NCBI GenBank assembly: GCA_050230475.1
Contig: JBFLGF010000069.1
Coordinates: 1 to 64,000 of the forward strand
Length of the DNA stretch: 64,000 nucleotides
Source of the DNA: Ancylonema sp.
Lineage: Eukaryota
Direction of reading: 5' to 3'
A model generated the notes under the pieces. That model made no database searches. It saw only the letters and a list, made by a program, of their open reading frames with translations, and was not told the origin of the DNA. This document shows positions 917-60,248 of this stretch, piece by piece. Position numbers and translations under genes: made by a program. How positions within the stretch are numbered: the stretch's first letter is position 1; the number at the start of each line of letters is the position of its first letter.

Positions 917-1426
917 TCAATAGGTTCCCCTTCCACAATCACTGGAGCATCAGCACTGGGTCCTTAGTCGTCGTCTTCATTTCCTCCCTCATCTCCACCA
1001 CTTCCCTCGTCGTCGTCACTACTGTCTTCCACCAAAACATGCATTTCCAGCTGATGATTCACTTCCCCCACAGAAAAAACATCATCATTGAGATCTGGAA
1101 ACATGAGCAGATCGACATCATCAAACTCCCCACCATCAACTGCTTTTTTCCACCAGCCAACCTCAATATTTTCATCGACATCGGGAACCCCCACATTGAA
1201 CACCTTCCCCCTCACTATATCCGAGACTCGATATCCGATACTCCTAGCAGGATATCCAACGACTACCCCCTCCCACTTCGTTACTCCCCTCTCCCCCTTT
1301 CTCTTAAACTATTCCATCGACACTTAGGCTTTGCTCCCATAAGCTCTTAGATGTTTGATCGTTGGAGTACTACCAGACCACAACTCATTTGGGGTCTTAC
1401 TCAGACCGATCACTGGTCCTCTGTTT

Positions 1427-4227
1427 TGTCGTGCCGTTAAGCATCGTGCCCCATTCACACGTGTAACCCATTCGATATAACGAACATTGTTACAATGAGT
1501 ATGAATCACGTGCGAAATATGAATCTGGTGCGAATTATGTGTCGTCTCATCACATGGAGTGTTTGCACATAGAATCATGACCTAGTCGAGGTCCGCCACA
1601 CACACGTGTGTACAAGCATCGCGCAAGTCTACCACATGTCAAATATGATTTTCTAGTCTACCTATGGCAAGGCGTTGCCATTGGACTGAACGTAGAGTGT
1701 TCGAAGCTGATGAAAGGTATGAGATTGCAAGATGCGATCACACAAGATCTGAAATGAATTCACACAATCGCGAAAATGCCAGCCGAACACAATGAGAATT
1801 GGATGGACAATGGTATTGTATTCCTCAGAGATTCCCGAGGAGTGATAAGACCAATTAAAGGTCGAATCACTCCTGTTACAGACTTTATAGAACTCAGCTC
1901 AGCAATCTATGCTAGTTACAAGGAAGCTACCATTCCTGCCGTATCGACTTATGGCGCCGGCTCGGCGGTTTTAGCTAGCCGACTTTTCCTAGTTTATCCA
2001 ATTGTAAACTAGCACGCTAGGACAGATGGTGCAACATGCTTTACTCGAGGTGAGAAGATGTTAAACTAAAATACTGCAGTAGTGTCGATGCGTCACAGCT
2101 ACTGACCAGTATCCCCATAAGTCACAAAATGGCGATCCACGCCTTGTCGCTTTCCTCCCGCAACTAAGATGCCAACTTACGGCGCCTTTACCGCGGGAAT
2201 ATTGCTAGGCGTTGACGGAGGAAACTGTACGCTGAATTGCCAGTGGCCTGGTAACGCAGCTGTCGGTACAGTCCGTCCTTGGTGCCGCCAAATGTGCCGT
2301 AGGTAGGTGGCGGAACAACTATACCGTTCGGTCTAACTAAGGCCTTAGATCCCTTTCACTTGACCAAGGACAAATCCGTCCGAGGGACACGTGTTATTAC
2401 TTCGAACATTTCGATAAGTAAAGTAACCACGCGCATTCCGACTTTCAAATATAGTCGTGAATATCCGTACCCGTGCCATGTCATCGAATAGACACCTTCG
2501 CCATATAAGCACTTCTACCTGAAAAGCGTTCACTAGCGTTATACGTAGTTCTGAGCATATAATCACACTTCACCGTTCAGGCGTATTTACTCTATAGGTA
2601 CTCTCACCGTATAGGCACACCACTTCGAGAAAATACCTTCTCCACTCTATATTCTCACCATATAAGCGATAATCTTCGTTATGAAGGCACACGATCGAAT
2701 ATTGTCCGACAGCTGTCGTGCCGTTAAGCATCGTGCCCCATTCACACGTGTAACCCATTCGATATAACGAACATTGTTATAATGAGTATGAATCACGTGC
2801 GAATTATGTGTCGTCTCATCACATGGAGTGTTTGCACATAGAATCATGACCTAGTCGAGGTCCGCCACACACACGTGAGCGCTAATAAACAACATTGTAC
2901 AAGCATCGCGCAAGTCTACCACATGTCAAATCTTATTTTATTATAGTCTACTGGCAAGGCATTGCCGTTGGTCTGAACGTAGAGTGTTCGAAGCTTATGA
3001 AAGGTATGAGATTGCAATATGCGATCACACAAGAACTGAAATGAATTCACACAATCGCGAAAATGCTAGCCGAACACAATGAGAATTGGATGGAAAATGG
3101 TATTGAATTCCTCAGAGATTCCCGAGGAGTGATAAGACCAATTAAAGGTCGAATCACTCCTGTTACAGACTTTATAGAACTCAGCTCAGCAATCTATGCT
3201 AGTTACAAGGAAGCTACCATTCCTGTCGTATCGACTTACGGCGCCGGCTCGGCGGTTTTTAGCTAGCCGACTTCCTAGTTTATCCAATTGTAAACTAGCA
3301 CGCTAGGACAGATGGTGCAACATGCTTTACTCGAGGTGAGAAGATGTTAAACTAAAATACTGCAGTAGTGTCGATGCGTCACAGCTACTGACCAGTATCC
3401 CCATAAGTCACAAAATGGCGATCCACGCCTTGTCGCTTTCCTCCCGCAACTAAGATGCCAACTTACGGCGCCTTTACCGCGGGAATATTGCTAGGCGTTG
3501 ACGGAGGAAACTGTACGCTGAATTGCCAGTGGCCTGGTAACGCAGCTGTCGGTACAGTCCGTCCTTGGTGCCGCCAAATGTGCCGTAGGTAGGTGGCGGA
3601 ACAACTATACCGTTCGGTCTAACTAAGGCCTTAGATCCCTTTCACTTGACCAAGGACAAATCCGTCCGAGGGACACGTGTTATTACTTCGAACATTTCGA
3701 TAAGTAAAGTAACCACGCGCATTCCGACTTTCAAATATAGTCGTGAATATCCGTACCCGTGCCATGTCATCGAATAGACACCTTCGCCATATAAGCACTT
3801 CTACCTGAAAAGCGTTCACTAGCGTTATACGTAGTTCTGAGCATATAATCACACTTCACCGTTCAGGCGTATTTACTCTATAGGTACTCTCACCGTATAG
3901 GCACACTAGGCACACTTCGTGAAAAGACATTCTCCACTCTATAGGCGCTTCTCACCATATAAGCGTATGAAGGCACACGATCGAATATTGTCCGACAGCT
4001 GTCGTGCCGTTAAGCATCGTGCCCCATTCACACGTGTAACCCATTCGATATAACGAACATTGTTATAATGAGTATGAATCACGTGCGAATTATGTGTCGT
4101 CTCATCACATGGAGTGTTTGCACATAGAATCATGACCTAGTCGAGGTCCGCCACACACACGTGAGCGCTAATAAACAACATTGTACAAGCATCGCGCAAG
4201 TCTACCACATGTCAAATCTTATTTTCT
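1427..4227. repeat. Tandem array of the ~1286-bp LTR unit: 1427-2711, 2714-3997, partial 4000-4227
   Basis: Near-identical copies, each starting TGTCGTGCC; the two full copies end TTGTCCGACA and are joined by GC spacers. The short ORFs 2345-2566 and 3631-3852 translate identically. Confidence 0.95.
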
Positions 4228-4235
4228 CCCCCCCC
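4228..4235 (-). other. Polypurine tract (G8) of the Gypsy element
   Basis: C8 run on the plus strand directly abutting the end of LTR homology at 4227. Confidence 0.75.
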
Positions 4236-4818
4236 AAAGATGAACCAAGCTCCCGCGACATTCATCTTTGCACTACGTGCACTATGAAATAACGCCGACC
4301 CGAACATAAAGGGTTGTCAAACTCCGATAACTGAGGTGCCGGACCTGAAATCAGGAAGGTCCCACCATCACTATCGCCTCAAAGTCTACATATGAGATGT
4401 GCACTCACTATGTACTCACTTTGGCCAAAATATTATACCCCCCCCCAAATGTGCACTTTGGTGGATAAAATAAATTGCATCATCCATGAAGGAGTGATGT
4501 GTGGGCCATGCAATCCGTATGGAGTTGCCCTTCCCGTGATAATGGTACTTGGCGTAAGAACATTATCACCTTATGATCATAATAAACCATGAACATTGTG
4601 ATTCCTCCCCAATGTTAGGAGCCTTCCAAAGAATTTGAGGTATTTATAGCCATCAAGATTCAATATCAATACTTGTATGCCAGTGCAGGCAAGACAATGA
4701 AAAGCTACATTACAAAGTAATGGACCAAGAAATGGTTTTCGCCAGCTTCATAGGTGAAGATAGAGCTCAAAGACGAAATACCCCTATACACGAAAATGAA
4801 GTTGGGAGTGCACATACC

Positions 4819-4956
4819 TTAATGCTTAGGGCACGTCCATGGTTCGATCGGCACCCTCATCAAAGGCTTGTCAAGACACCATACGTGACAACCCGCGTTG
4901 CACTTATCACAAACGACCATTTTTGTCGCCGCCCGCCGTTGCCGCATTACTTGGCA
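4819..4956 (-). pseudogene. PHD finger at the C-terminus of Gypsy pol
   Basis: Hand translation, not in the ORF track: CQV...MVVCDKCNAGCHVWCLDKPLMRVPIEPWTCPKH*, matching the PHD pattern CDxC-GxHxxCL-VP-W-CP. Confidence 0.85.
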
Positions 4957-5080
4957 ATGGAGAGATGGACCTCGGAAGTTAACGTTCGGGGGTACATCTT
5001 GGTGTCAAGGATGGGAAGGGGAAACCGTGGGCGATGTTCTTTATCTGCTCCTCCCGTCTTGCCGCAATCGCTCCCCTCCA

Positions 5081-6060
5081 TTAACCACTACCCCGCTTTG
5101 GTTTGATCTCCACGATTCGTGACACATGAGGCCTGGATGGTGCCTCCAACGTGCTGACCTTGACTTGTCGTAGCATGACATAATCTCCGGGAGCAAAAGA
5201 TGCCTTGGGCCGATCCCATCCCCCGCCTCGCACTAAGCGGTACCGCTCCATGTCTCGTTGCTGGGCAATCGCAAGGGGCATGACACGTTTGAACGCCTGT
5301 CCACGGCGGTCCAAGAAAGCCCGCAGTCCCTCCTCCACTGTCTCAAGGTCTAGGACCTCCGCGTGTGACTCCTGAAGACGACTCTGAATGATGGGGTCCC
5401 GTCCGAACATCAAAAAGTATGGAGAATAGCCCACCGCCTTTTGCTTTGACATGCGGTAGCCCATGGCGACGTAGGGAAGGAGCTCGTCCCATTCCTCCCC
5501 ACCACCATCTAGAAGGCACTTCCTAAGCTTCATGGTCTGGACCATGCGCTCCGCCAAGCCGTCCGATTGAGGGTGCTCTCGAGACGCCAACCTGTGGGTG
5601 ATTTCGGGTTTGGCAAGGAGAGTTTGGAAATCTCCTTCAAAGTCTGTCCCTTGGTCTGTGAGAATCACCCCTAGTGCTCCGTATCGGCTCAACACCCCGT
5701 CCAGCAGTCCCCTCGCCGAGTCCCGAGATGATTTGGAGGGTAAGGGGATAAGTTCAATCCACTTGGTAAAATTGCATACCATGACATAGGTATTGTTCGC
5801 TGATGTCCTAGGAGGCCCGGCGGCAAAATCTACCCCCCACCTGTAGCCCAACCCTTAGACGGGTAGTGGCTGTAGCTCCTTCCCGGACTCCTCCCGAAAG
5901 CCCGCCTTTACCCGTGCACAAGGGTGGCATGCTCTGATGACGGTCATAATCATGTCGCCCATGTTGCGCCACTAGTAGTTCTTCTGAAGCCGATCAAGGA
6001 CCCGTTGGTGGACCCCGAAATGTCCCATCCCTTGATGGGTGTTGATGACAATTCCCTGGC
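5081..6060 (-). pseudogene. Gypsy integrase (HHCC zinc finger plus DDE core), frameshifted
   Basis: H-GMGHFGV; WGVDFAAG; ILTDQGTDF; HPQSDGLAERMVQT; GYSPYFLMFGR. Confidence 0.93.
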
Positions 6061-6359
6061 GGTCGGCTGGACGTGGCACCACTACGATCCTCCCCCCTTG
6101 TAGTGACTCCATCACCCCGTCGCACATCCAACGATAAGACTTGGCCCTCCGATAGATCCGATCCCGCATTTTAGCGCTCAGCCCGTCGCGGTCCTTGTGG
6201 GTTTGAATGAAGTGTAGTACATCGGTGTCGTGCCAGATGTCGCGTTCCTCCTCGCTGACATCCGTCGGTGTAGTCGCTCCCGCCATCAGCGCCAAGAAAG
6301 TGGTTGGTGCCAAAACTTCCCCTATGGTCCAGTCTAGAAGTGGTGCATTGGCAGCCGAT

Positions 6360-7640
6360 GGAAGGGGGTAACGACTCAGGCAGTCCGCGTTGGTGTTGGC
6401 AGTCCCCGCCCGATGTTCCACCGTAAAATCATACTCTTGGAGTAGTAGGCTCCACCTAGCCGCCAATTTACCCCCGTTAGCTTTTGAGTGGTCATAATCC
6501 ATTTTAAAGGTTCATGATCAGTCACAAGGGTGAAAGAATTCCCAAACAAGTAAGGCCGGAAATGACTAGTGGCCCATACAACGGCCAGACATTCCCCATC
6601 GAAAGATGCGTAATTCTGCTCCGCGGCGTTGCAAGATCTGGAAGCGTAGCATATTGGGTGCTCCACGCCTTCCGAGTTGCGTTGGCTCAGTATTGCGCCC
6701 CCGTTGGCTCCATTCCGTAGTGAGAATGAAAGGGGAGTAAGGGTCCGGGAGTCGTAGGACTGCGGCACTGCAGAGTTATTCTTTGAGCTCCAGATATGCA
6801 GACTCTTGCGCTTCCCCCCATTCCCATGGCCGGTCTTTCTTCAGTAGCGCGTTAAGGGGAAATGCGATGGAGCTGAAGTGTAAGACAAACTTCCTGTAGT
6901 ATGAAAACAACCCCAAAGATGCCCTCAAGCTAGATATGTCTGTTGGTGAGGGGAGATCACGGACTGCCGCTAGTTTATCCTGTTGGGGCTCCAACTTATC
7001 GGCTAAGATGCGATGGCCAAGGAAGTCGATGCTGTCCGCGCCGAACACGCATTTCCTTGGGTGTACTTTTAAGCCTGCGTCGCGCAATCTCCCAAACACT
7101 ATCTATAAGTGTTGAATATGTTCCTCCACCGTCGTAGACCAGATGATGATGTCGTCGATGTAACATCGACAGAATGAGAAGTCTTTAAGGACCTCATCCA
7201 TTCTGCGTTGGAAATGTGGCGGGGCATTTTTCAGTCCAAACGGCACCACCAACCATTCCCAAAGTATGCGATTAGCCCCCCAGAAGGCCGTCTTGGAGCG
7301 ATCCTCCTCGCGTAAGGGCATCTGGTGGTAACCGCTCCTCAGATCTAATTTCGAAAAGATCGTTGCCCCCCCCATCTGATTGAAGATGTCCTCCATTCTA
7401 GGTAAAGGGTATCGGTCCAGGGTGGTCTCCAGATTTAATGGTCTGTAGTCCCCACACTGTCTGAAGTCCGTATAGTTGCCCTCCGTATCCTTCTTCCGTA
7501 CGACGACGGTTGCGGACGCGTACATGGATTGGGTAGATCTCTGAATAAACCCAAGCGCCTCTAGTTTCTGACATTGCGCTTGAACAAAATCCCACTCCAC
7601 CTGACCCAGTTTGTGCGGGGGCCGAAAGATCGGTTAGCTG
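6360..7640 (-). pseudogene. Gypsy reverse transcriptase and RNase H, with stops and frameshifts
   Basis: DYRPLN, FSKLDLRSGYHQ, PFGLKNAP, YIDDIII, SLGLFSYYRKFV; RNase H GAILSQ...PICYASR...EQNY...FTLVTDHEPL...ARWSLLLQEYDF...NADCLSR. Confidence 0.95.
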
Positions 7641-8139
7641 GAGTTGAGGTGGATCTGAAGGGGCTCTCCTGTAAAGGGCTCAATGTCCTCCAATGAGAAA
7701 GCGAAACGATCCAACGATCCAAGTTGGTAATCGCCAGGACCTTCAGTTGGTCCTACTCTTGTAGGCTTGCGCCTATTTGAAATTTCGGGGTTGGCGACTT
7801 GTCCCGCTGAGGGGGACCTGGCGTACTCCCCCCCTCGCCCTCAGGGGCTAAAACCCTAGGGTTTTGAGTAGACCCTCCTGGGGATTCCGTGGCAAGTAAA
7901 GCGTTGACCACCCCCATGGCAGCATGACGTGGAAGATTAGGAGGAGATTGGAAAAGGGATGCATCCACTGTAACCCTTTCTCTCATGGCTGGGATGTAGT
8001 GGAGAGACGTGAAAGAAGGATGGATGGAAGGAAGGGTGATGTCCCCCCCCCCAGGTGAGAGAGGATGTCTCTGAATCTGGGTGGGGTGAGATCCCTATGC
8101 CTGGCTGGCATGCAAGAAGGCACCCAACCACCGCAGTAT

Positions 8140-9110
8140 TTCCGTCCAAAGCGCGCCCCAAACGAATAGCGCGGTGATCCTCCGTGACGCCAGATGTGAC
8201 CGTATCGCCAGCGTGAAATCCCAAAAGGAGCTCTTTCTCCGTGGCATCTGGCTCCTCTCCCAACTGTTGGTGTGGATTATACACTGACCCTCCCCGGGTG
8301 CTCCATCGGCTTTAGCACGGAATGCACATTGCTCCCCAAGTATATGAAACCACGGTAGGCATACAGATGCGCGCCCATCCAAGTTGTTTGTGGGGGGGAA
8401 ATGGGTGGCGATCCGTGTGACCTGGTTTGGTGGGGATGTGATAGGGTCTGAGGATGGTGTCCACCAGAGAAGGGGATGGCGGTAGGATGGGCAGCGCAGC
8501 TTGAAGGGTTGAAGGGGGCAGCATGTTAGTCCATAAAAGGCGCACACGATGGGCGGCTGCCCCAAATGTGCTCCATCCAACCAGGATAGGTGCTCCCAAG
8601 AATGCGTGCACTAACTCCCCTACTTTGTTGACTGCTGGGGCACATGTCTCCCCTGGGTAGGTGTTATCCAAAATGTAGAGCATTGGTGACTCCTGTTCGC
8701 GCTGAAAGAAGTTGATGATACGCACCAAGTCGTAGAAGAAGGTGAAGCGGGGATCCTCGGGATCCTCGGCGCCCAGCTGCCGTCCGGCCCGGCTGACACT
8801 CTAGCATTCCCTACTTCCCCCAAGGAGGTCCACTGGTCCATAGCGTGCCACCAAATTTGCAAGAAAAAGTTGGCTGACAGCGGAGATGGACTGCTTGTCA
8901 AATGATCGTATGGCGGAATCCAGGAGTTGACGAGGATATTGGCGTTGCAGGCTGGTCAATACACAAATCGTGCGATGTGCGACGGCTGATGTCGTCTTTG
9001 TCCACGTAGGTGTAGCAACGTATGCAATAGCCTGCTGCTAGGGCAGTTCGAAGAACTCCCAGGCCAAGCCAATTCCCCCAAAAAAATCCAGCACGTGTAA
9101 GCCATTTTCA
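8140..9110 (-). pseudogene. C5 cytosine DNA methyltransferase domain embedded in pol between protease and RT
   Basis: Motif I VLDFFGGIG (~9095); motif II YTYVDKD; motif IV DLL-GSREC*SVSRAG with the catalytic Cys (~8805); motif V DPRFTFFY; motif VI YILDN; motif VIII AHRVRLLWTN; motif IX EKELLLGF; motif X RLGRALD. Order is canonical; frameshifts and a stop are present. Confidence 0.88.
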
Positions 9111-9465
9111 TGTACTTGAGATGAAAGCGTGCGTACAGACGCAGACGCAGACGTATTGGTATTGACAGGTACAGCTCCCTGCCTGAACGACATCACCCAA
9201 CCATTTGGACGTGGGATGCGAGGTTGGTAGGGCAAGAGGGACAGTTTGTGCCAACTTGACCGCGCGGCACTCTCCCTTCGCGCCAGGTCACCTACCCTCA
9301 CCTCCTCACACAACCTTACCGACTCTTGGCGGTCGCATGCCTCTGCAAGTTGTTGAAGGTTGACTGCCGCTAACTGGAGGGGAGAGGAATAAAATCCGAA
9401 GTCCTCCTCGGCTGGTATAACGTCGTCGTCGGCGCCTTGCACATCTTATAAGTCGATCTCTCCAT

Positions 9466-11747
9466 CTAGGAGGCCACTGAAGCAAGCGTAAGCGATGAGA
9501 GGTGGAGATGACGTGTGACATATGGGGCAGATATCTCGTGTACATGTGCCACCCCATCGCTCCCCGTCCACCGACACTTGAATTGCTCCGTGTATGTGTC
9601 GTAGGCTCCACCCATTGATGTCATGAACTCCATGCCTAGCAAGACGTCGTAGGCAGTCGTGTCCACAATGGTGAAAAATAGCCATATTGTATGCATGTGT
9701 GGGTGTGGCGTTCCCCGGCCGAAAGTGAACTTCACCTTTCCCCGTGATACGCCAAGTGGCATTACTACAGCTCCACTTGCTGTAACATACTCCACTCCTC
9801 TAGTCAGGTTGTTGGAGTTGATTTGCATTGCAGCCGCGAATGTCTAGCTCAGCATCACGTTGGTGGCCCCGGTGTCGAGTATGGCCTCTTTTGGCACACA
9901 TCCCTCTACATCGAGTACCCCATGTGTATTGTCGATGTAAGCTGGTTGTTGCTCGGTCCGCCTCTGGCACCCGCGAATGGTTCCTCGTGTATGATGGGCA
10001 CACGTTGATCCGGGAAGCGCCTTTCTTGGTCTGTCGCCTTATCCCACAGGCTTGCGGACAATTCCGCCACCAGTTGTTGCAGGTTTGTGGCTGCATGTCG
10101 GAGCTGTGCCATGGTCTGCAGGGGTGTTTCTGTCATCAAGATCTCCCCATCTCCGAGTGGCGCCTCTGGAAATAAATTGGTAGGCGGGAATCGTAGATCG
10201 GATGTCCCCGGCTCCAAGCTGGATGGAGGTAAGCCATGCGGGAATGATTGCGGCAGTTGTCCCTTGAATGCGTATTTGTTACTTTGGAAGCCAGGCGTAG
10301 TGTCTGGTTCCTCTTGTGTAGGAAACAAACGATCGACGGACTCTGGAGTAGGGTCAGCAACGAGTGGAGGAGAAGGAGGCGTAAAGTGGACTCGTCGTCC
10401 TCGTGCCTGCTCCGATGATTGCCGTGCTGCCTCCGTGGGTAGGCTGGGCCTTGTTGACCGCCTCTGCACCATGGCCAGATGAGGTCGCCGATAGGTGAGG
10501 GCCATTCCCTGGCCTAGAAGTGATAGTTGGGTGGGGCTGACGTAATCGGCTGCTTTTCTCCTCTTACGCGCTGTTGCTGACAACGCTTGCTGCCTCTTCT
10601 TTAGTGGTGCTTCTAGCACCAGCTCCGGGTGTGCCGACCAACACTGCGCCTCTGTATGACCTGGCTTGTTGCAGGATTCACACACATGCCCCGTGGTCTT
10701 GTGGGTGGCCATCGCGTCAGTATTGTTGACAATTGTCTTGCCATTGGTGGCTGGGGTTGTGGTTGTTGGGCAATTCCTGGCGAGTCCTGTCTTCTTTACA
10801 CTCGCGGTTGTCGTGCGTTAGTGCACTCTCCCCTCTAGTTCCGAGTCGGTCTCGTACATCTCGCGGTTGAGTGCCCAAACGATCTCCCACCGCTCTATGT
10901 GGTCTTGGAGGTGGTGGTGGTGCCGAGGGGAGTCGCTCATCACTTGTGGGTCGTGGATTAGGTATCTGGCCAGCTGCGCGCATCTCAGCTTCAAATTCCT
11001 CCAGAAGAAAGCCCTCCTTACGTTGCGCTAGTGCCATCAGTTGTTCGTCCATGTCCATGATGAATGGCGTCCCCTTCTCGAATCGTTTCTCTCTCATCCT
11101 CCCTCATCATTGAGTTGATGGTGGACCGCCTGATGTGAGTGGGATATGTTGTCGTAGGTTCAACGCCAATCCACGTGTTGTCATTAGTCCCGCTGTGAGC
11201 AGTGGTATCGCCACTTCATCAAAGTGGTCAGCCAATTGTAGGAGTGATTCCCGTGGTTTAGCTTTAAACGCATGCAGGTCCTCCAAGTAAATAGCCGATG
11301 CAGCCTGAAATGAAATGTCTCCTGTACAATAGCGAGGAACTCGTCCAATTCAGCTGGCTCCGGAATAGGATCATCCAACAAATCAGGTTGTGCGGGTGAT
11401 GGTCCTCCCGTCTGGACTTGAATCTGGCGTAAGTCGTAGACTGACTTGGCCTTGTAGTAGTGCCTCCATTTGGCACGACTCGCTTCTCGTGTGACGGCCT
11501 CCTCGTAGAATGGGTTGGTCTCGTCACAGTAATCCCATTTGTCAATGAAATTGTCCAGCAGACGTCGGGCCTGTCCTCCCATACGTAGTCCCAATGACTC
11601 AAGGTATTCGTATTGTGCGATACCGTTGGCCAATTGTTTCATTGGGTCGTTGAGCAGGTTACGCCACCCGATACGCGCGTCTTTGATGCAAATCCTCTGC
11701 TCATTGCTGCCGTCACCAGTGTATTTCTTATCACTTACTGGATTCAT
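9466..11747 (-). pseudogene. Gypsy gag (with CCHC knuckle) and aspartic protease, fragmented
   Basis: CESCNKPGHTEAQCW at ~10685; protease AILDTGATNVML at ~9885-9851 and YDVLLGMEF. Confidence 0.8.
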
Positions 11748-11816
11748 GATGTCAAACTTTTTTTCTTTTTTTTTGCGATATCAAATTCTGAACTTCGGAA
11801 TTTAACAAAAATTTCC

Positions 11817-11830
11817 AATTGGTCTTATCA
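11817..11830 (-). other. Primer binding site TGATAAGACCAATT, self-complementary type
   Basis: Abuts the LTR boundary at 11831; exact reverse complement of LTR positions 12019-12032; does not begin TGG as a tRNA PBS would. Confidence 0.75.
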
Positions 11831-12882
11831 AGTCTACCTATGGCAAGGCGTTGCCGTTGGTCTGACGTAGAGTGTTCAAAGCTTATGAAAGGTATGAGAT
11901 TGCGATATGCGATCACACAAGATCTGAAATGAATTCACACAATCGCGAAAATGCCAGCCGAAGCCGAACACAAAATTGGATGGAAAATGGTATTGAATTC
12001 CTCAGAGGTTCCCAGGAGTGATAAGACCAATTAAAGGTCGAATCACTCCTGTTACAGACTTTATAGAACTCAGCTCAGCAATCTATGCTAGTTACAAGGA
12101 AGCTACAATTTCTGCCGTATCGACTTACGGCGCCGGCTCGGCGGTTTTAGCTAGCCGACTTACTAGTTGATCCAATTGTAAACTAGCACGCTAGGACAGA
12201 TGGTGCAACATGCTTTACTCGAGCTGAGAAGATGTTAAACCAAAATACTGCAGTAGTGTCTCGTATGCGCACAGCTACTGACCAGTATCCGCATAAGTCA
12301 CAAAATGGCGATCCACGCCTTGTACGTGTCGCCTTCCCGCAACTAAGATAACATGCCAACTTACGGCGCCTTTAACGCGGTGTGAATATTGCTAGGCGTT
12401 GACGGAGGAAACTGTACGCTGAATTGCCAGTGGCCTGGTAACGCAGCTGTCGGTACAGTCCGTCCTTGGTGCCGCCAAATGTGCCGTAGGAGGTGGCGGA
12501 ACAACTATACCATTCGGTCTAACTAACTAAGGCCTTAGATCCCTTTCACTTGACCAAGGACAAATCCGTCCGAGGGACACGTGTTATTACTTCGAACATT
12601 TCGATAAATAACCACGCGCATTCCGACTTTCAAATATAGTCGTAAATATCCGTACCCGTGCCATGTCATCGAATAGACACCTTCGCCATATTCGCACTTC
12701 TACCTTATAAGCGTTCACTCGCGTTATAAGTAGTTCTGAGCATATAATCACACTTCACCGTTCAGGCGTATTTACTCTATAGGTACTCTCACGTATAGGC
12801 ACACTTTTCGAGAAAAGACACATTCTCCACTCTATAGGCGCTTCTCACCATATAAGCGTTAATCTTCGTTATGAAGGCACAC
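11831..12882 (-). repeat. 5' LTR segment X of the Gypsy element, with TATAAA at 12065-12060
   Basis: Homologous to 1655-2692 and 2945-3978 with small indels; lacks the 228-bp Y segment, which lies at 4000-4227. Confidence 0.9.
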
Positions 12883-15028
12883 CTAGACACTAAGCAACCT
12901 TGTTTCGAATGCACGATGCAGTTGAGATTGCCTCCACCCAAAACCCCCATCCTAAGCCAGCACCTACCAACATTGATCTTGCCTTGTCTTGCAGCGTACG
13001 ATTCATTCGCACCGCAATCCCATTGCTTTGAGGTGAACGTGCTGAGATAGTTTGATGAAGAATGCCATGCTCCCTAAACCGAGTCTCAAGTGCTGTATCG
13101 ATATATTCTCCTCCTTTGTCTGACCTGATTTTCTTGACCCTCCTTCCAGTCTGATTTTCGTTTACTGTGATCCACTCCTTGAGAGCAACCTTAGTGTCGC
13201 TCTTCTGTCGAAGTGGCACCGTCTAGGACTTCCGACTGAAATCATCGATGATCACCAAGTTGTGCTGGCTGCCTCCTCCTCCCATTGCCTTTGGGTTAAA
13301 AGGGCCAACGATATCCGTATGAGCTAGCTCAAGAGGCTCCTTCGCCTTGTACTCCTGAATTTTCCTTGGATGTGATTTCTCGCTGGACTTTCCAACTTAT
13401 AACTTTGGCACATTCCGAAGTCCCCTCTGATCCCCTCCTCCAATCCCCCGACCAGTTGCTCTTGCAGTAATCTCTCCATTCCCCCCTAAGATGTGTGCCC
13501 AAGCCTTCTGTGAAGCAATTCCATGCTTATCCATTTTCCTCCAAGTGCCTCTCCCTCCATTTCCTCAAGTCCATGGAGCCCCTCGCAGATAAAGGTAGGT
13601 CTCGCTTTCAACGATTCTCTCATTTTAGCTATTTGCTCTCCTTCTTTGTTCAAGACGGGACTCTCTTTCCCAGGCTAAGGCTCCCCTTTGAAAGAAAAAC
13701 TTCAAGCACCCTTGTCCCGGATTCGCTAAAGCGAGAAGATATTCACCTTCATCCCTCGCAGAAACAACACCTCATGAAGCTCTAGTACACCTCTCACTCC
13801 ATTCCCCTTGTCAGTGGACAGGCGCACTACTCCCCATTTAGTTATGACCACCTTTCCTTTAATCTGCTTGTTATGGAATGTTGATGGAATGTCTTCGAGG
13901 AAGTCAAACATATTTATGCCACCCGACATGTGATAGTCAGCTCCGACCCACTCCCTCTCTTCTCCATCACCATCTCCTATGCCCATGTTGATCTCCCCAA
14001 TCAGCACCTTTGCATGTCCCTAATCTTCCCCATCTGTCCCCTTCCCAAATATTTCATGGCCACCTAGGCCTCTCCTTGCGCTACAAGCACCTCGACCCCT
14101 TGTTCTTGTACCACCGGATTTTCCTCCCCTTGCAGCTCCATTTGCCTTGTTGTAATATGTTAACTCAATGTGTCCTACTCCTCCACACCATGTACAGACG
14201 CTATCCTTCTTTGGGCACTCTCTGCTCTAATGGTCCGACTCACCACATCTGAAACAATTTGTTGATTTCCCTTCACTTCCTCCACCGCTTCGACCGCTGA
14301 GATTTCCCCTTCCTCCCCCCCTAAAGCTCCCTCGACCCCTCGTAGGCTGATAATAGATTTCTATCGCCATTGCCGACGCTCCAGATTGCAGCGCCCACCT
14401 CTTCTTTGTAGACTCTATATCATACATTCGATCCCAGATGTAGTCTATGGGTGGAGCTGGAGTTTGCGCGAAGTACGACTCACAGAGTATATCATACTTC
14501 TCTGGTAGAGCACCAAGGCGTGTCTGCAGCCGATTATTTGCTCTTATCATACCACCCTGTACTGTCACCTTGCGTGAGAGCTCATTGTACCTCTGCTTGA
14601 TAGTAAGATAAGACTCATCACCACTGATTGTGAAGAAAAGAAACTCTGTGCGCGCTGATGATCGCTGCGCGGGTGTCACTGTATTGTAGTCTGCTCCAAA
14701 TTGTGCCTACATGAGGACAAGGTTGTTACCATGAACATCGAGACACATGACAAAACTGTCGTCTACCGTCTGAGTGATAAGTGACGCGGCCTTCTTGGCC
14801 CAATCCTTGATTTCCACGTGTCTTTTCTCAACCTCCGCAATATTGACCGGAACGTTTTCAGCATCTTGAACTTTTGCGATTTCAAAAGGCTCCATCTCTG
14901 TACCGTTTAATATTTCCAAACAGTCCTCTGCATCCACGATTGCCGTGAGTTTTGTTCTCCACGGAGCGTAAGACAATGCGTCCTTCAACACCATCTTTTT
15001 TACATACTCTGAGGATCCGGAGCTAGAG

Positions 15029-15445: not shown

Positions 15446-17491
15446 AAAGGCTATCAAAAGCCTCGCCTAATTTTGAAAGACGGGAATTATCGACACTAGA
15501 GTACAATCATCGAACAAGTGCCTCGAAAGAAAAAGGTTTGGGTCCACGTGCAAGGTACGGTGGCACCACCCGGACCAATTTTGCAACTTGGCGCTTGCGC
15601 TTCGCCAGCAGTCCCCGCAGTACCCGAGATCGTCGCCGCGATGGGCGTAGCCGCAGTTCTCGCCGTACCCGCCGTACCAACAAACGCTGGCGTTACAAAG
15701 GCGCAGGTCGACGCTTCTCGCGTGGCCCACGATCAACACGCCGTGAACGAGGCGAAGGCCGACTCCATGATCCTTCTCACGCTCAATCCGAAGGACCCAA
15801 TGACCCTGATTGCGTATATCACGGCAGCGAAAAAGTGGACAAAGCTTGCCGCTGATCACGTGTCAATTACAGCGTCGAAGGGAATCAATGCTACTCAAAA
15901 AATTCAGTCGTTTGTATTTATTGTAGGAGAAACAGTCTACTAGAGCAGGCAACGCTTCGACGGCCTAGTCACCGAATGCGCGCTTCAGGGTATCGTCCTG
16001 TCCGAGATGTTGAAAACCACGGTGCTTCTTACGCACCCAACTGAGAGGTGGAAGACCTTCATTGACTCCATCTCCTTTCAGGGTCCTCTCCCGACAACAA
16101 CAATAATATTTCACCACATGATCATCCTTTCATAAAAGAGGGAGGCCCGAGACGAGAAGGAACACACTAAAGCGAATTTCGCGGACTACAAGCGACGGAC
16201 GCGTCATCCATCGACAGGTGGCCAGAGACGAGTTCAGAGCCGGAATGAGGTTCAGCATTAGCAGCCAAGGCGAGAGGTTCTTCAACCAGGGTCTGCAAAT
16301 CCCTGCTTTTGTTGCGGAAGTTTCCTGCACCTTTTCGCGACGTGCCCTAAGAAAGATCTGAGTTGCAATGTTTGCGACAAGAAGGGGCCAGGTGTAAGCT
16401 ACGACGAACAAGGCAATAGTTGATCAGCCTTCAACTTCCGTGGGCAAGCCAAAGAAAATTGAGTTCGCGGGGGACCTAAAAAGGCATCTGCTCTGAAAAA
16501 GGCTATGGCCGCGGAAATCATCGAAGTAGAGGCTGGCAAAATTTGCAATGTTTCAAGCAATGAGTGGTTGGCTGATAGTGGTGCGAGTAGGCAAATTTGC
16601 AACGATGTACGCATGCTATGGGATGTGAGGCAGCTTCCAGTACCCATCATAGTCGGGCACCTAGCGGATGAAGTCCCGATTACGCAAAGTGGGACTGTAA
16701 AAATTCAGTGTGAGAATGAAACAGGAGAGGTGGTGCAAATTGATCTTCACGATGCTTTGTTTGTGCCTAACTTTCGTGTTAATTTATTCAGCATGCAAAG
16801 AATGAGGCAGGCACGCGTCCGATCAAAGATAGTAGGTAGTAAGTACCCATCAAAGATAGGGACAATTTGGATGATAAATAGTTTAGGCAATTACATAGGT
16901 AGTCTTGATGAAAGCTATCTAGGCAGGCCCACTTTGAATTGTCGCACCCTACTCTGTGACGTGGCTGCCTACACCTTTTTCCCTCCTACTCTGGATCCAG
17001 ACCCACGTACGACTGAAGTCGTCGCGGAGCAGGCTGTTGCAGCTGCTAACGTCACAGGGGACTTGTGAGCAACCGCCCCTGCTCCCTCTGTTACGGCACA
17101 TTCTACCGCAACCGAGGCCGCTTCAGAGACACCTTGGAAAAATCTGCCCTGCAATTCAACTTGATCTCCTACACCGACGCACAGGCCACTCTGCTCTATG
17201 TACACTGTTGCAGCTAAGAGGCGAAGGCCTGGTTCGACCTCTCGACTCTGGCTCTGAACTCGTCTCTGGCCACCTGTCGATGGCTGACGCGTCCGTCGCT
17301 TGTAGTCCGCAAAATTTGCCACAGTGTGTTCCTTCTCGTCTCGGGCCTCCCACTTTTATGAAAGGATGATCATTTGGTGAAATATTATTGTTGTCGTCGG
17401 GAGAGGGACCCTGAAAGGAGATGGAGTCAATGAAGGTCTTCCACCTCTTAGTAGGGTGCGTAAGAAGCACCGTGGTTTTCAACATCTCGGA
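15446..17491 (+). mobile_element. Second Copia family fragment (gag, protease, GAG-pre-integrase start) with an inverted duplication of part of gag
   Basis: Degenerate gag; WLADSGASRQIC protease (~16565); LFVPNFRVNLFS; LDLLHRRTGH (~17160); 17250-17491 is the reverse complement of 16001-16241. Confidence 0.8.
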
Positions 17492-22278: not shown

Positions 22279-24768
22279 ATGACTGATAGGGCCTATGATT
22301 ACCGGGAGGCAAAGTTAGATCAGCATGAAGACATTTCTGCTCCGCGGACGCCTCAATCTGCCGCCAGTTCCGAGTCTGGTGGGGACCGGCACTTTCGCAT
22401 TGGTAACATCATCCTCCAGGCTGCTCAGCAAGCGCAGCAAGATGAGCAGGCGCAGGCAACTGCCCGGACTGCGGCACAAATTGCCGCTCAAGCACGAAAG
22501 ATGAGGTCTCGTACTCGGAAAGTGCAACCTGTAGCAGCAGATCAAGATTATGATGTGGAATCGTCAGGGATGAGTCATCGTGTACCTTCCAATACGGAAT
22601 GGGGAATGGGGTCCGGGGATATGGATAGCGACATGGGGACCCAGGACGTGGAGAATTCACCCACCGCGAAGGATATCCGTGGACAGAAATCCTTATATCC
22701 CGACGGGAAGGCTTACAGTCTTCCTCTCCCGCCTGCCTTTGCTCTCTTGGACATTGAGAAGCCCGGGAAACGATCATTGTTCAGTGTACGGCTATCCCGT
22801 CCCTCACTCTCCTACCTTTGCCCCTTCCGGCCGTAACCAAACGTGAATATAACGGCTCAAATACCACCCGTGATCACACTGCGACACAGACCCTCCCACC
22901 CATAAAATACGATTTTTCAACCTGACACCAAGTTGCCGTATTTTGGGCCTATCAAGTGCCGTGAACGGGTGCCACCACGCTGTATCTAGTTTCGCATAAT
23001 CTTCCACATTCACTATACAGCAACAACACTATCCGTAAGTGTAAGCTATATACCGCTGTGTAACAGAACCTGGTCATAACTCCACAGTTTTTTTTTTTTT
23101 AATGGATATCGTCTCTCTCCACTGCCTGTTCTCAGCGTCCTGGAGAATGTCAGGTCACGTGAATGTATCATTGCTCTAGTCGACTGTGTTAACAAGCGCC
23201 AGTCCGGAAGTATGGGCCCCCCTTGTGCTCTAGTTGGACATTCAAGCGCCCTCCCCCTCAATACAAGTAGTCATACACGTCTAGCTGTCGTACAATGTGA
23301 AAGAAAGCTGAGAAATTCACACCCGATTGGCAAATATTTACAGAGATGACGACTCTCTTTACGTTTCTAGTAGTCACACATTTCTCTCCCTGGGCTGTGG
23401 CATACTCATTCGCGAGCACTTGTAGTATATCACACAGAAATATTGATATGAGAAATATGAGAAATATGAGAAATATTGATGTCCTCATAAATTCACGCAT
23501 TTCTCTCTTTTCAGAACTCATTGTTCAAGGGGCCGCCTGGATACCGCGTCTGCTTGTGGACGGCGATAACCCTCATGGCGCTTTCCACCATCATCGGCCT
23601 CAGTATGATCACAGCTTTCGTAGCGCTTCAGCCGAAAGCACCCACGTATGACTTGCAGGAGGTCCGAGTGCAGGTCTGTGTTTTTCACTCGCTGACGTTC
23701 GGGAATATGATCTTGCTAGCTAGTTGCACAGTTCTGGTCGCGGTGTTGCCCGAGGTAATATCGTCATTCGACCGATGGCCGCAAAATTGGAAGTGGGTTA
23801 GTCAGACAGACAGACAGGTGCGGATCAGGACCGAAGTTAGCTTTCCTCGAACTGGGGATTCCAAATTTGGAGTGTAGGCAGGGTTAACCGGTGTAACAGA
23901 GGGGTTGGAGTATAGGAGGCACTGAAGTTGCGTCGTCATTCGACGCAACTTCCGTACTCTGTATGGAGAGAGCCGCCATGATTCGCAATGATCGACTTGC
24001 TTGTCTGTGAGCCTCGGAGGGCAGGTGCATGCACTGTGTCAGTAGGAAGTACTGTCGGAGGACTATGGATACGAAGCTGATAGTGAATTTGCAAAATGCC
24101 CTCAGCTTGGGCGGAAACAAGAGCATATACTGAGCAGTGGTTGATAGTTTCGGTCATATGAATGCAATGGTAACAAGGAGACTGAAGAGTTTTTATTTCC
24201 AGGAATGAGGAAAGAAGGTGACGTGAAAATGTGTGGTCCTGGGGGATGGAACACTGTGTGGGTCAGTACTTGGTCACTCATCACTGACAGGTGTGTCTCG
24301 TCGCCTTTGCATGTGCAGTGGTGGCTGACCTACCGGGACACCGCCGGTTACCTCCCCGCCACCAAAGTCAACAATGGCACTGCAATTTCCACAGTGTACC
24401 TTTACGCAGACGTGGTCCTGGTTACCAAGGCCGAGAACCACAATAATCAAATCGGGATTCACTACCAGAATACCACGTTCGAGATTTCCTACCAAGGCAC
24501 GCGAATCGGATTCGTAACGGTACCTCCGGTCTACCAACCGCCCAACAACGTAACTTCCGTTCTAGCGGAGTGGAAATGTGACGGATGTGTCGTTTTGGAC
24601 GTGGGTCATTATTTGGAAGCGGACCAGCTGATGGGGTCGGTGCCTCTGAACATCAAGATGACTGTCGACGCCAGTGTCGAAATTGCTGGGGTGGTGTCTC
24701 CGGGTTACGTTTACACCAACACATATGATGTGAAAATAAAGCCCCCGCCATCCACTTCTGGGAGTTAG
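22279..24768 (+). CDS. LEA_2 / NDR1-HIN1-like membrane protein (exons ~22279-22785, 23530-23673, 24319-24768)
   Basis: Disordered N-terminus, TM helix then ALQPKAPTY, and KAENHNNQIGIHY...ISYQGTRIG...PPVYQPP; splice sites in phase. Confidence 0.8.
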
Positions 24769-26094
24769 TTAGAGTGATGAATCAATGCCAGGTGGTGGCA
24801 GGGGGGAGTAGCCCGATTGTCTGGCATGACATTTTGACACAGAGGGTGCAATATATAAGACGTTGACTTGTACAGAAGAGGGTTTGAATGAGTTGTCGGT
24901 GGTTTGGCTGGTAGGTTCACTTAGGAGTTGATCTGACATCGACATCAGTTCTTTATTCATTTTTCCCCGATATTCAGTTAAATATTTTTACATGCTTATT
25001 GTACTCTCAAATTTGAAGGGTATCTGTATGAAAGTCGACGCATATGTATTTTGATAAATTGCCTCGTGTTTTGAATGGTATTTGTCTTCCCGCTCCAGTT
25101 CCAATTGAGTGGTTGCAAAACGTTGAACGGATGCTGTAATGACACACAACCCTTTCTCTTTGACGCCATCATGACTCACACGCGATTTTTAGTTAGACGT
25201 GTTAAATGATGTATTAACATTACTAAAACAAGTCATCAGTAAGTGTTAACCTCACTTGCAACCACTTTACTTCATGACGGCTATCCTTCAAATCCAGCCC
25301 AGAAAATTGATCTTCTCAACAAATCTATTTTCCTCTCCACCTCCTGGAACATTCTCTCTATGAAGAAACTTGCCAAAAAAAAAGGACATCGATATAACAC
25401 CAAAAGTTGTCATGCACGATTATGTTTGCCGATTTAGCATTGTACTAGTTCTAAGTTCATGTAACGAAGTACCAGTTCGATTGTTTTAGTGATTCATTGC
25501 GGCCATCCGACCATCGATACCATCGATACCATCAACGCATTTGTCACAACCTTTCGAGTATGTGTAATAAGGCGAGATTCCCTACTATATTTTGCTAGAT
25601 ACTATTAGGTCGCCTACCGATTGCAGTGTCAAGTTGATTGGCACTACGCTTAAGAGCCAACAACTTAAAGCAAAAAAAGAATTACACTTGCACAACTTGT
25701 TCGCACTCTCGCAGGTTTGCGAGACTTGCACCCAGTAAAAGATTTTCCCATACGAGCCTAGGCATTGTGTCTATGTGATCGTCTCTCGCTTGCCGCCTCA
25801 ACGTTTCGACGTATGCACGATGTCGCTCTTATGCAAAGTTGTACTCACCTGTGAGCACTTGCCTCGAGTGATCAGCGCATGAGTTGGTAGCGTGACATAG
25901 CGTTACACAACCATCTACCGTTTTGTATTAGTGCCGTGATCTCATGATTATATGTGTGTAATGAGATTGAGTGCGTCGACACCATTAGATAACTGTATTT
26001 TGATGCTTGATTAGTTATGTGTGTATTTGCATCACGATCGCATCTAGCACGTCAAAGCTCATTCAAACCACATTCGCACGGTCCTCCACACTTT

Positions 26095-26335
26095 TGTTTT
26101 CGGTACGGGTTGGTCCGAGGCACGTGTCCTCGCGGTCTTCCGAATTTTTAGGTTTTTTGCAAAAAAAAAAAAATCAAATTAGGGGTTTTTGAACCTCTTT
26201 ATCAAGACGCGTCCAATACGGACATCATTGGTTACGTGCGATGCATATTTTTAATTTTGATCAATTTTGAAAACAATTTTCAAACTTTGAAAACCCAAAG
26301 TTTGACACGAACGGAGACAAATGAGGACGTCTAGT
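26095..26335 (+). repeat. Dispersed repeat, probably a non-autonomous TE; inverted homolog at 37280-37720
   Basis: Shared colinear blocks CGGTACGGG, CGCGTCCAATRCRGACAT, TGCGATGC, TCAATTTT-GAAAAC and CGAACGGAGACAAAT. Confidence 0.7.
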
Positions 26336-26990
26336 CAATCGGACTTTCTAAACTAGACAAGGAACAAGATATGTGTCGAGAAGAAAGGGAGGAGGTCGCG
26401 TGAGTGTCCACGTACGACGTGAGTTGTGATATGGTGTGTTTGATGTGATGATGTGATATGGCATCACGAGAAGTAATCTCCCCACAATGTAATCAGTTGT
26501 TATGTGCGCCATAATGATGCGTGACATAAAATGTACGTATTATATTCACTTAATAGTCACTTGAAACTTTGGAAGTGGAGTAAAAGTGTCGTGAGTTGAT
26601 TGTGTACCCCATTTGCACTACGTATAAGAGAAAGAATACAAACATACCCAAAAAACCCAAAAAGGGCTCTAAGTCCGATCCCCCTCTTTTTTTGGGGGGT
26701 ACAGGTCGGGCTTGGGAACGAATTTCGGGTCCCCGTACATTAAATCACCCTACGCTCGAATTTCTTTCGACCTAGCGTTTAGTACACAACATATTCTTTT
26801 CCGACTCTTGAGAATTGGCAATAAGGCATATACTTGAGCTTGATGCACCCTACTCTACGTAACTGGTAGAAAGAAGGATTGAGGCAAAGAACATCAAAAC
26901 ATGTTTATAAGCATAAAATTTATATACATTTGGGATAGTTTTTGTATTAGGTATGAAACATCCAAAAAAGAGTAATTGTTGGACAATTGC

Positions 26991-32600: not shown

Positions 32601-34632
32601 GACACGCATGCAGGGGGTTGCCACCTGGCGGGGAAGCGTTGGGCGGGAGGGGGAGGGTTTCGAACCAAAGGCAGGACTTGGACTGTGGGGGCTTTGAGAG
32701 ATATGCGACCACTTAGATTCAGATTCGGATTCACTTGCGGTGGCATATTTAGCGTGCCGTTCGTTGATTCTGATATATCTTTATGGCAAAGCACCTACTC
32801 ACCGACCAACAGTCCATACCAAACAAACTAGATCGTGGCATCTGGCAGATGCCCCTACTGCTTACATCAGCGAGGTCTTCCAGCAACTGCCTCTGAAGGT
32901 TCTGCAGCCTCTGCTCCGCTCGTATTTGCTCTGGCGTCGCCCCGTCAGCGATCGACTTCACCCCCCCCGCAGTGTCGTACAGCAGACAGAGCTGAGTCAG
33001 CAGTCGGAGGTAGCAGTCCATCGCATACGTCCTCCCAGCGCATTCCCAGCCCACACAGGGACGCCCAACCTCCAGAACCTCAAGCGCAGACTGGGCCCAT
33101 TTGGCAGCGCTACCCTCCGTGTTCCCGAGGACTCCGGAGGATCTCATGCCAGTGGTTGGGGAGCGGAGGGGGGGGGGGGGCTGGGAAAGTTGGAAGCAGG
33201 TTTCTGCCAGACAAGCGAGGAGCTCTTCGCGGAACAAGGAGTTGGCAGAAACGGCAGAAAACTCTTCGCGAGTTTGAGCATCTTCCAACAGCGCGCCGAC
33301 ATCTGTCCCTGCCAGAGGCTTCTGCCCCCTCCTAGCACTCTCCTTCACAAACAGGTCCAGACAGAGAGCTGTCTGACAGATGCAGGCCAACGCATGCATG
33401 CGATCGGCCTCCATTCTGAGGTTGCGCACCATCACCAGCAGCCTCTTGAAGAGCGCCACCTGGAGGTGCAGATCCAGCAGCTTGAGGTTCGAAACCACCG
33501 CCCTCACAATGGCTTCCCTCCCGGCACTGTACTCCTGACGATCCCACAGCGTCAGAAAGGCTGTGATTGGTCCAAGGGCCCACTCAGGCTTCCCCCCCGG
33601 GACACCGGCCAATGACAGGACCTGGATGCCGACCTCATACACGAGCGCGGGGTCCAGGGAGGAGGAGAGGAAGGGGGAGAGGTGGGAGATGATGTCAGAG
33701 ACCCCCAAGATTCTTTCCGCATTCACCAAGTCCTTTTCGACCCCAGCTCCGACCCCCAGCCTCCCCCCCCGGCTCGGTTGGGCCCCTTTTCTGTTGGCCG
33801 TGAAAGACTTCATGTCGTCTAACATGCCTGATGCGACCGCTCGAGCGGCGTAGACGAGGGGGTAAACCGTTGACCTCATTTTGTCGAGTGGCAGGACAGC
33901 GGCACGAGCCATGAGGAGATCGCGTTTGGACCATACGAATTCAACTGTCGAGATGACGAATTGGGATCGGACGGCCAATGAGGACTCGGTGGAAATGATT
34001 TTGTCGCCAGCGAGGCGAGATAACCGCTTGGTGGCAAATTCGGAGAAGAGGCTGCCCACGGCGTCAAACGCGGCGGATGATACGGAGTCGGCGGTGTCCA
34101 GCATGGAGCGACAGATTTGGGTCCACCAGAAGTTGGCGCGCTCGAGCAGAGTGACACTTGTCGCGCAGAGCAGAGCCATGTCATCCCGCGCCAGAAGACA
34201 TCCGAGGGTTTCGACAGTCACCTGGCGCAGTGCCACGTGGTCGTGGACCATGCAGGCGCTTATGTCGTTGCTGCACTCCGTCACGAAATCACCCACGCGC
34301 CAGCTGGGGAGGGCGGTGAGAAACGAGAGACTGACGGCTGTCAATTCGGGATTGCTGGAATTGAAATCCGTTGTCATCCCGCGGCAGACGATCTCCCACT
34401 CGTCCGCAATCAGACGTGAGATGCGGACGCAATCATCAGCGAGTTTCTTACACACCACACTCGTGCCACTGTTGGCGATCAGTTCATTGCAGAAAGTGGG
34501 AGCCAAAGAGGAAATGTCTTTTCCGGAAGCTGCCAGCTGCAACGCGACCAGAAGCGAGGATGACTGACGATCGAGATCGGTAGAAACGACGTCAGCTTTG
34601 ATGGCCTGATAAATCAAGTCCATAGTAGCCAT
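29639..34632 (-). CDS. TPLATE: TPLATE, core subunit of the TPLATE/TSET endocytic adaptor complex; 7 exons (34632-32866, 32624-32442, ~32364-32252, ~32124-31814, ~31364-31242, 30950-30459, 30037-29639)
   Basis: MDLIYQAIKAD...ALQLAASGKDIS; GVPGGKPEWA; RPCVGWECAGRTYAMDCYL; YPFTHHKL...AAQDRKLE; LSGSSDP; FERSALCVQLLYY; LCYMAKTWYG. Confidence 0.95.
30069..30154. repeat. Heptamer array (AGAATCY)n in the last TPLATE intron
   Basis: About 12 tandem AGAATCT/AGAATCC units. Confidence 0.9.
31420..31730. repeat. Degenerate (ATAC)n/RY microsatellite in a TPLATE intron
   Basis: Seen directly. Confidence 0.9.
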
Positions 34633-35246
34633 GATTGCGAGCGGATGGTGCGTATACTACAGCTGGGTCAGAGGCTGGACGGAAAAGCGAGACGGGAGGA
34701 CTACTCAGAGAGAGGTGCGGATGGTGCGTAGAAAACTCGCGCGAGGGGGACGGAACTCACGAGAAAGGTTATGTACGTAAGGTGCCATCACGCCTTTCGA
34801 TGTGTGCGTACTGTCGCTCCATGGCAATACAGAGCGTCCAGGTTACCGCGACGCACATCAGGACATCCCAATACAATCTGATACGGGGCCTTGCCTGGAG
34901 GTCGCTCTGACACGGAGCTCCTCAACAATTTGTCACGCGAAAGGAATGTACCTTTTGCCGGTGGTACGGTTTTGTACGGAGAGAGAACTGGGCCAGGGTG
35001 ACACTTCTTTCCACGCCTTCGGCTCGCGGTTTGTTTCCGTACTATCATATCTCGGCCAGTTCCAGTCAAAATGGCGAGACCTACAACAGAAGTAACCGAA
35101 AGATGCACCGATACAGCGGGTACCATTATCTGAACCCCACTTTTAAAGTTCGCAAGACATGCAGAGTTTTCTCTACTAGCAAACAATCACCTGAGTTGTT
35201 ACTAAACATATCACAGCGAAGGTGAGGAGTAATCAGAGGGTGTACG

Positions 35247-53991: not shown

Positions 53992-53992
53992 N

Positions 53993-60064: not shown

Positions 60065-60248
60065 CATGTGTACGCACACACTATACAGATGGTTGCGTAC
60101 AGAGGAAAAGGGGTAGAAGCTGGACACATGCACATATGTATGCATCATCGTAAACCTGCAGCATAACACACCACCAGAAACAGCAATGAGTCCCCAACCT
60201 CAACCTCAACATGAACTTACTACTCTTCACAGTACTTACCATTGCATT

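Follow-up and report, generated by a model that had tools for sequence, protein, structure and literature searches.

A predicted self-primer and terminal repeats split at an inner joint in a green-lineage Ty3/gypsy retrotransposon clade

We propose that a decayed Ty3/gypsy retrotransposon in the window (the whole stretch of DNA analysed, 64,000 nucleotides) very probably primes its own reverse transcription with the first 14 bases of its RNA, because a 14-base self-match next to its 5′ repeat is kept by relatives that spell it with different letters. The terminal repeats of this element are split into two parts, A and B, and the place where its TG..CA ends and its target duplication are found is a CA-NN-TG joint within the A+B LTR, not the ends of that LTR. 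Since the inserted ends lie inside the terminal repeat, integration likely proceeded from a circle opened there; we infer the start site, the primer cleavage and the circle itself.

The element interrupts a copia element, both halves of which align to a second copia copy at 56242–57841. Contigs from 3/3 DNA runs contain the empty site, in which 1421 is joined to 12901 with five shared letters. The insertion and its coding content, in the protease–reverse transcriptase (RT)–RNase H–integrase order of Ty3/gypsy, comprise the following features:

1427..12900, minus strand: whole element, a decayed Ty3/gypsy retrotransposon with split repeats inside a copia element (copia flanks and empty site)
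12901..12905, minus strand: target site duplication, 5′ copy, AAACA (flank comparison, empty site)
1422..1426, minus strand: 3′ copy of the target site duplication, immediately past the CGACA end of the element (flank comparison, empty site)
9906..11747, minus strand: gag-like region, broken (position and a CX2CX4HX4C knuckle in the 9906–10817 frame)
9571..9942, minus strand: aspartic protease remnant (tblastn to P0019 residues 34–156, E 8e-16)
8135..9226, minus strand: C5 cytosine methyltransferase remnant with stops and frameshifts (38% to P0016 residues 480–834, E 1e-61)
6379..7630, minus strand: reverse transcriptase and RNase H, broken (PF00078, PF17917)
5030..6100, minus strand: integrase, rve core (PF00665)
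4822..4995, minus strand: PHD finger at the end of pol (PF00628)

Because the first 18–19 nt of the element have been replaced, a 4-bp reading of the duplication, AAAC, is equally good. The related protein P0019 carries the Pfam protease domain and PF00145 was found on P0016; Pfam searches gave no match for the gag-like region and no direct match for the window's own methyltransferase fragments. A PHD finger is present in the window element and in P0002, P0016 and P0019, the chromodomain PF00385 is absent from all four by Pfam, and none of the 17 window frames scanned encodes a tyrosine recombinase. Across the clade the methyltransferase stands either before the RT or between RNase H and integrase (P0067, P0068 and P0070 versus P0016, P0019 and P0117), so the domain either moved or was captured twice. 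The sequence of the window element was found in glacier, ice and sediment metagenomes, and, given the plant-type host genes in the neighbourhood (LEA_2), its host is probably a streptophyte glacier alga.

Elsewhere in the window, the second copia element (53033–62132, minus strand; rve, RVT_2 and a zinc knuckle; repeats at 53033–53854 and 61269–62132) is 70–78% alike to the copia element that the gypsy element interrupts; TG..CA ends or a TGG primer binding site (PBS) were not evident in the stretches of it inspected. Inside it, at 53994–54737, tandem 67-bp units form a large inverted repeat whose arms, about 350 nt each, are 90% alike. Further inverted arms (16001–16244 and 17247–17491, 94–98%) surround a copia-type protease frame at 16463–17065, and degenerate inverted repeat pieces at 26082–26621 and 36986–37730 (72–79%, about 10.5 kb apart) bracket host genes. 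Host gene pieces (ribosomal protein S9, a ribosome-binding GTPase and LEA_2) lie within 35685–36347, 47466–48605 and 24148–24765, all on the plus strand, and a minus-strand frame at 32752–34656, without a Pfam match, is one that we take to resemble TPLATE.

The termini depart from the usual Ty3/gypsy arrangement of one complete LTR per end. The 5′ end is B alone and the 3′ end is A1-GC-B2-A2-GC-B3-A3, which gives B-internal-A-B-A-B-A overall:

11831..12900, minus strand: repeat B1, the presumed 3′ portion of U3 together with R and U5 (repeat comparison)
4228..4235, minus strand: G8 polypurine tract (PPT) directly before A1 (sequence, relatives)
4000..4227, minus strand: repeat A1, inferred 5′ part of U3, ending CGACA (repeat comparison)
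3993..4004, no strand: inner joint 1, CGACA-GC-TGTCG, inferred integrase site (repeat comparison)
2945..3997, minus strand: repeat B2, with the primer motif at 3130–3143 (repeat comparison)
2714..2944, minus strand: B|A joint j2 (imprecise, five other letters replacing two) and repeat A2 (repeat comparison)
2707..2718, no strand: inner joint 2, CGACA-GC-TGTCG (repeat comparison)
1655..2711, minus strand: repeat B3, with the primer motif at 1843–1856 (repeat comparison)
1427..1654, minus strand: repeat A3, joined precisely to the B3 end (j3), its CGACA being the 3′ end of the element (repeat comparison)

What the preliminary description called the 5′ LTR does adjoin the PBS, but it comprises just B; the A portion of the LTR lies at the 3′ end. 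B2 and B3 are 95–96% identical to B1, and A1 equals A2 at 226/226 positions. The first 18–19 nt of B1 (12882–12900) are unlike the TGTCG start of B2 and B3, with the length unchanged. The A end CGACA and the B start TGTCG form a palindrome with two nucleotides between them, and the CA of A3 is followed by the target duplication; the window copy thus retains the 3′ CGACA with its duplication and has lost the 5′ TG. Repeat B stops at 11831 in both other window copies as well, and in 3/4 DNA runs contigs exit B at 11831 into the start of A. Since A1 directly follows G8 and B ends directly at the PBS, A+GC+B is the LTR expected from reverse transcription. The extra A-B unit of the window copy may have arisen by duplication at a later time or by misassembly. 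A second G-run at 4438–4445 (minus strand) lies 210 nt upstream of the PPT, and reads show deletions between both regions.

The features that bear on priming cluster around the 3′ portion of B1:

12060..12065, minus strand: TATAAA box (sequence; spacing to the primer alike in relatives)
12019..12032, minus strand: predicted self-primer, the first 14 nt of the predicted RNA (complement, folding, shuffles)
11817..11830, minus strand: primer binding site, adjoining B1 (complement, repeat end, contig exits)
12013..12051, minus strand: hairpin across the predicted start, hiding the primer only in RNAs that start at least 20 nt upstream

The PBS, read on the minus strand from 11830 to 11817, is TGATAAGACCAATT, and 12032–12019 is its exact complement (14/14). 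A perfect complement between the 14 nt adjoining the repeat and an LTR segment about 30 nt past TATAAA had been claimed before, and it is borne out: the primer begins 33 nt after the first T of TATAAA (12065), at a pyrimidine-A step, base composition predicts 7e-6 exact 14-mer matches in the 1070-nt repeat, and the observed 12/12 score was reached by 0/300 dinucleotide shuffles. The earlier placement of the primer 3′ end at the base abutting the LTR also agrees with the data, in that the PBS starts at the first base past the end of B1 at 11831, a boundary marked by the other copies and the contig exits. By contrast, the conservation claimed at 1843 and 3130 is not independent, because these matches lie in B3 and B2, copies of the same repeat in the same element. 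Folding of the transcript start, suggested in the preliminary description, gave all 14 pairs for an RNA starting at 12032 (z = -3.3, mean pair probability 0.96). The hairpin across the start does not hold as a feature of the clade, since 4/4 relatives tested showed no such effect. Contigs of RNA run X19 thinly cover 25/30 bins, too sparsely to place the start site. At a 3% threshold, reads list variants at just two positions of the paired 14-mers, 12029 (A>G) and 11820 (T>C). These positions face each other in the helix, where the changes turn U-A into C-G or U.G; no contig phases them, and in the three runs that cover it the 11820 variant makes up 42–64% of depth, with the 12029 variant at 2–14% in those runs.

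A metagenome scan for relatives yielded at least 559 matches, the best 80 of 559 were kept, and 30 loci were screened as clade members (duplicate pairs L004/L006 and L012/L013 included). The pairing test covered the 13 loci in which B1 is followed by the internal region, and compared the 12 nt after B with the segment 24–38 nt after TATA. Among these best 80 of 559 matches, 10/13 relatives showed at least 10/12 Watson–Crick pairs, each score being matched by at most 3/300 shuffles; the preliminary description had suggested seeking compensatory changes, and pairing is indeed kept with other letters. Within the same 80, the passing loci fall into two other sequence families (9/11 and 1/2), the primers of which are unlike each other and unlike the window primer, so that the window and the two families amount to three independent sequences, not eleven. 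For the two-locus family (L022 and L062) the end of B was placed by the complement itself. The three failures among the 13, again from the best 80 of 559, are L020 with a boundary insertion, L062 with its primer deleted and L064 with its PBS partly deleted. In L062 B1 (4830–4860 region) a loss of about 14 nt has removed the primer at a local palindrome that is intact in L022 B2; a reading of this deletion as a clean footprint of primer cleavage was dropped, as it coincides with the local palindrome and the alignment is ambiguous. Next to the PBS, the repeat ends AAT or GAT in family 2 (11 loci) and AGACT, not CA, in the window B1. In 3/3 control loci from outside the clade, exact self-complements at the repeat end reached at most 0, 6 and 8 nt; the control is weak, since two of these loci are permuted contigs, in which the end of the repeat is not necessarily that of an LTR.

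The layout recurs in these relatives. Among the best 80 of 559 matches, 8 distinct loci have A-B-A after pol, with B1 visible as well in 5 of them, and the reverse order, with A before B1 (B-A-B-internal-A), occurs in 0/13. Three loci (L017, L020 and L062) are B-internal-A with target duplications; L036 and L080 resemble them with damaged ends, and L007 and L022 show A-B only. Within the same best 80 of 559, the A|B joint has a 2-nt spacer of varying letters between CA/TA and TG/TT in 10/10 relatives (and in 2/2 window joints), A begins right after the G-run in all nine relatives printed, the end of B stands next to the start of A in 8/8 B|A joints with small slips, and B1 begins TGTCA in 13/13. 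In that set, an exact 4-bp target duplication flanks the TG..CA ends in 3/10 relatives with both ends, two more match at 3/4 positions, and in the remaining 5/10 a convincing duplication is missing. A FastTree phylogeny of 183 RT cores (9 near-duplicates dropped, only 4 of L091–L153 kept, as the outgroup, and authentic Tf1 not included) placed the window RT in an 82-leaf clade (0.993) that holds all 15 PHD-labelled proteins, zero chromodomain-labelled ones, and proteins named from the liverworts Calypogeia fissa and Marchantia polymorpha. A viral-contig scan with the window RT found no relative; with an alignment query it found 73 loci, and none of those placed in the tree fell within the clade.

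These observations allow us to propose a cycle, which as a whole we regard as reasonably likely: self-priming, joining of the cDNA ends into a circle, and opening of that circle by integrase at the CA-NN-TG joint within the LTR. First, RNA would start near 12032 in B1 and end in B2. Bases 1–14 would then pair with the PBS, and a cut behind them (made by RNase H, if the element follows Tf1) would release the primer. Ordinary strand transfers would produce a linear cDNA with an A+NN+B LTR at each end, after which joining of the U5 end to the U3 start would create the B|A joint. Last, integrase would make a staggered cut at the joint of the 5′ LTR, behind the CA of each strand; the two processed ends, with overhangs of 2 nt, would then be inserted, which would restore B-internal-A-B-A. 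With copying of the RNA reaching no further than B2, joining of the cDNA ends would have to supply the terminal A. Copies of the form B-internal-A might derive from one-LTR circles, from double cuts or from recombination between A repeats at a later time. From a symmetric two-LTR circle one would expect B-A-B-internal-A as well; as this order is seen in 0/13 loci from the best 80 of 559 matches, a plain circle is insufficient.

That asymmetry bears on an unlikely though serious alternative, in which the element self-primes without a free two-LTR circle: integrase would cut the 5′ joint of linear or half-finished cDNA and hold both ends, the short A being joined to the U5 end afterwards or gained through an extra RT jump or a head-to-tail dimer. 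Such a route explains why A-B-A lies only at the 3′ end (8 loci versus 0/13 in reverse order, among the best 80 of 559), and the B-internal-A copies with target duplications (L017, L020 and L062) are in its favour. On the other hand, it needs an extra ordered step for which we found no precedent, and the precise B|A joints are equally compatible with simple end-joining.

That the 14-bp helix is structural, serving packaging, dimer formation, translation control or DIRS-like cDNA pairing, with another primer in use, appears improbable. Folding shows only that the helix can form, and Tf1-type flanking duplexes beat shuffles (at most 9/200) in only 3/22 tests, with a weak duplex recurring at one place in 5 family-2 loci. 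Nevertheless, the last base of the helix coincides with the end of B and with the B|A joints, the position that a primer 3′ end must take, and the helix starts at the expected TATA-to-start distance in three families. A host tRNA or tRNA half as primer, with the complement incidental, is very improbable. The tRNA gene search was confined to the 64-kb window, which has none, a point that leaves room for it, but no PBS in the window or the relatives tested begins with TGG, the three PBS sequences, unrelated to one another, all find their match in their own LTRs, and an Rfam scan of 11600–12900 found no family over the PBS (one unrelated, chance-level match lies beside it, E 0.81). Finally, an ordinary LTR element scrambled after insertion, or misassembled, is scarcely credible: the copy is decayed, the identity of A1 and A2 (226/226) is as such a history would give and the third unit may be a duplication or assembly error, yet relatives sharing about 40% protein identity show the same layout at 8 distinct loci (best 80 of 559), as does an element of Klebsormidium nitens, as far as the accessible part of PMC5890265 depicts it, and the empty site brackets exactly the window layout, so that scrambling is contradicted for the basic layout and may still account for the extra A-B unit.

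Circles are usually a dead end for LTR elements. Here, primer and PPT mark the ends of reverse transcription and the target duplication marks the integrase cut, and the two do not coincide. This makes the old question of whether LTR circles can be a normal integration precursor testable with a short DNA substrate. We lean, by a little, towards the reading that in a green-lineage gypsy clade the integrase attachment site has shifted from the termini of the cDNA to a place within U3, and that the clade self-primes, joins its cDNA ends, integrates through a staggered cut at the templated CA-NN-TG joint and uses circles as its true precursor. The K. nitens element KnitGypsy-Dnmt3 has a gypsy pol with a C5 methyltransferase and the order A-coding-B-A-B, a layout noted without explanation in a figure legend of the accessible part of PMC5890265; the non-coincidence of the reverse-transcription ends and the integrase cut provides a concrete mechanism for it. 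The window element equals KnitGypsy-Dnmt3 in its methyltransferase in pol and its split repeats, a comparison by published description only, and the main text of that paper, in its accessible part, does not describe a primer, target site, joint, cycle or PHD finger (PMC5890265). New relative to KnitGypsy-Dnmt3 are the start of A right after the PPT, the end of B right at the PBS and the inserted ends at the inner joint. Tf1/sushi elements are known to self-prime, and the same has been predicted for Tcn1 and for the TAR lineage of copia (PMC6317226); here the signature stands in a different gypsy clade. In the literature covered, mostly open-access and in part excerpts, we found no account of this clade that describes self-priming or an attachment site inside the LTR. 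If correct, self-priming exists in gypsy elements outside the Tf1/sushi chromoviruses, and the same geometry offers a testable model for the split repeats of PAT and Ngaro. Annotation tools that expect one full LTR per end would presumably miss or mis-cut such elements.

Among known systems, Tf1 uses an 11-base self-primer cut by RNase H, according to the accessible text of PMC7175516. As in Tf1/Tf2, Tf1/sushi and Tcn1, the 5′ end of the RNA, here predicted, is complementary to a PBS abutting U5 (PMC7175516, PMC4600332, PMC6317226, each as excerpted). Also like Tf1/sushi as described there, the window clade lacks a tRNA match (no TGG start, no Rfam family on the PBS) and has a G-rich PPT and the gypsy domain order. 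Its primer has 14 or 12 nt compared with 11 in Tf1, and the repeat before the PBS ends CT or AT, not CA as in Tf1/sushi. The window clade has a PHD finger and a separate RT clade, in a tree without authentic Tf1, whereas Tf1/sushi has a chromodomain and a chromoviral RT; the termini are split in the window element and not in Tf1. Tf1 RNA forms a three-duplex 'pretzel' in the available part of bioRxiv 2022.12.06.519325, against 3/22 flank tests at no more than 9/200 shuffles here. The Tf1-like self-priming of the preliminary description therefore stands for priming (position, no TGG, two unalignable families, mirrored variants) but does not extend beyond it (PHD clade, no chromodomain, no CA before the PBS, split termini), and membership in the Tf1/sushi chromoviruses was rejected given no chromodomain, a separate RT clade and no CA before the PBS.

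Troyka elements have CG..CG ends and a 3-bp duplication and occur only in animals, in the excerpt of PMC12440569, and membership was rejected, the window clade ending TG..CA. Chlamydomonas Gypsy-7a_cRei is a gypsy element with a PHD finger that is active in laboratory strains and has 'LTR subparts' in a figure legend (bioRxiv 2022.06.16.496473, partial text). PAT, TOC and Ngaro share the A1-coding-B1-A2-B2 split direct repeats, with an inner joint copying the joined termini, but have a tyrosine recombinase where the window element has an rve integrase, TG..CA ends and 4–5 bp duplications (PMC4157794, in the part available). DIRS/Ngaro membership was rejected, as an rve integrase is present and no recombinase was found in 17 frames. 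REM1 of Chlamydomonas is another gypsy element with a PHD finger. Foamy virus integrase, a DDE enzyme, cuts the palindromic LTR–LTR joint of 2-LTR circles, where CA/TG ends abut across a short spacer, as proposed here (PMC1180852, accessible part). In that virus, on the same partial account, the cut site is the joined cDNA ends, whereas here the end-joined B|A would be kept and the templated U3 joint lies at the inserted ends. A DDE enzyme likewise acts on abutted ends with a short spacer between them at the circle junctions of IS3- and IS30-family elements; those systems cut at the joined ends, and in the window clade the cut would fall at the templated joint inside U3.
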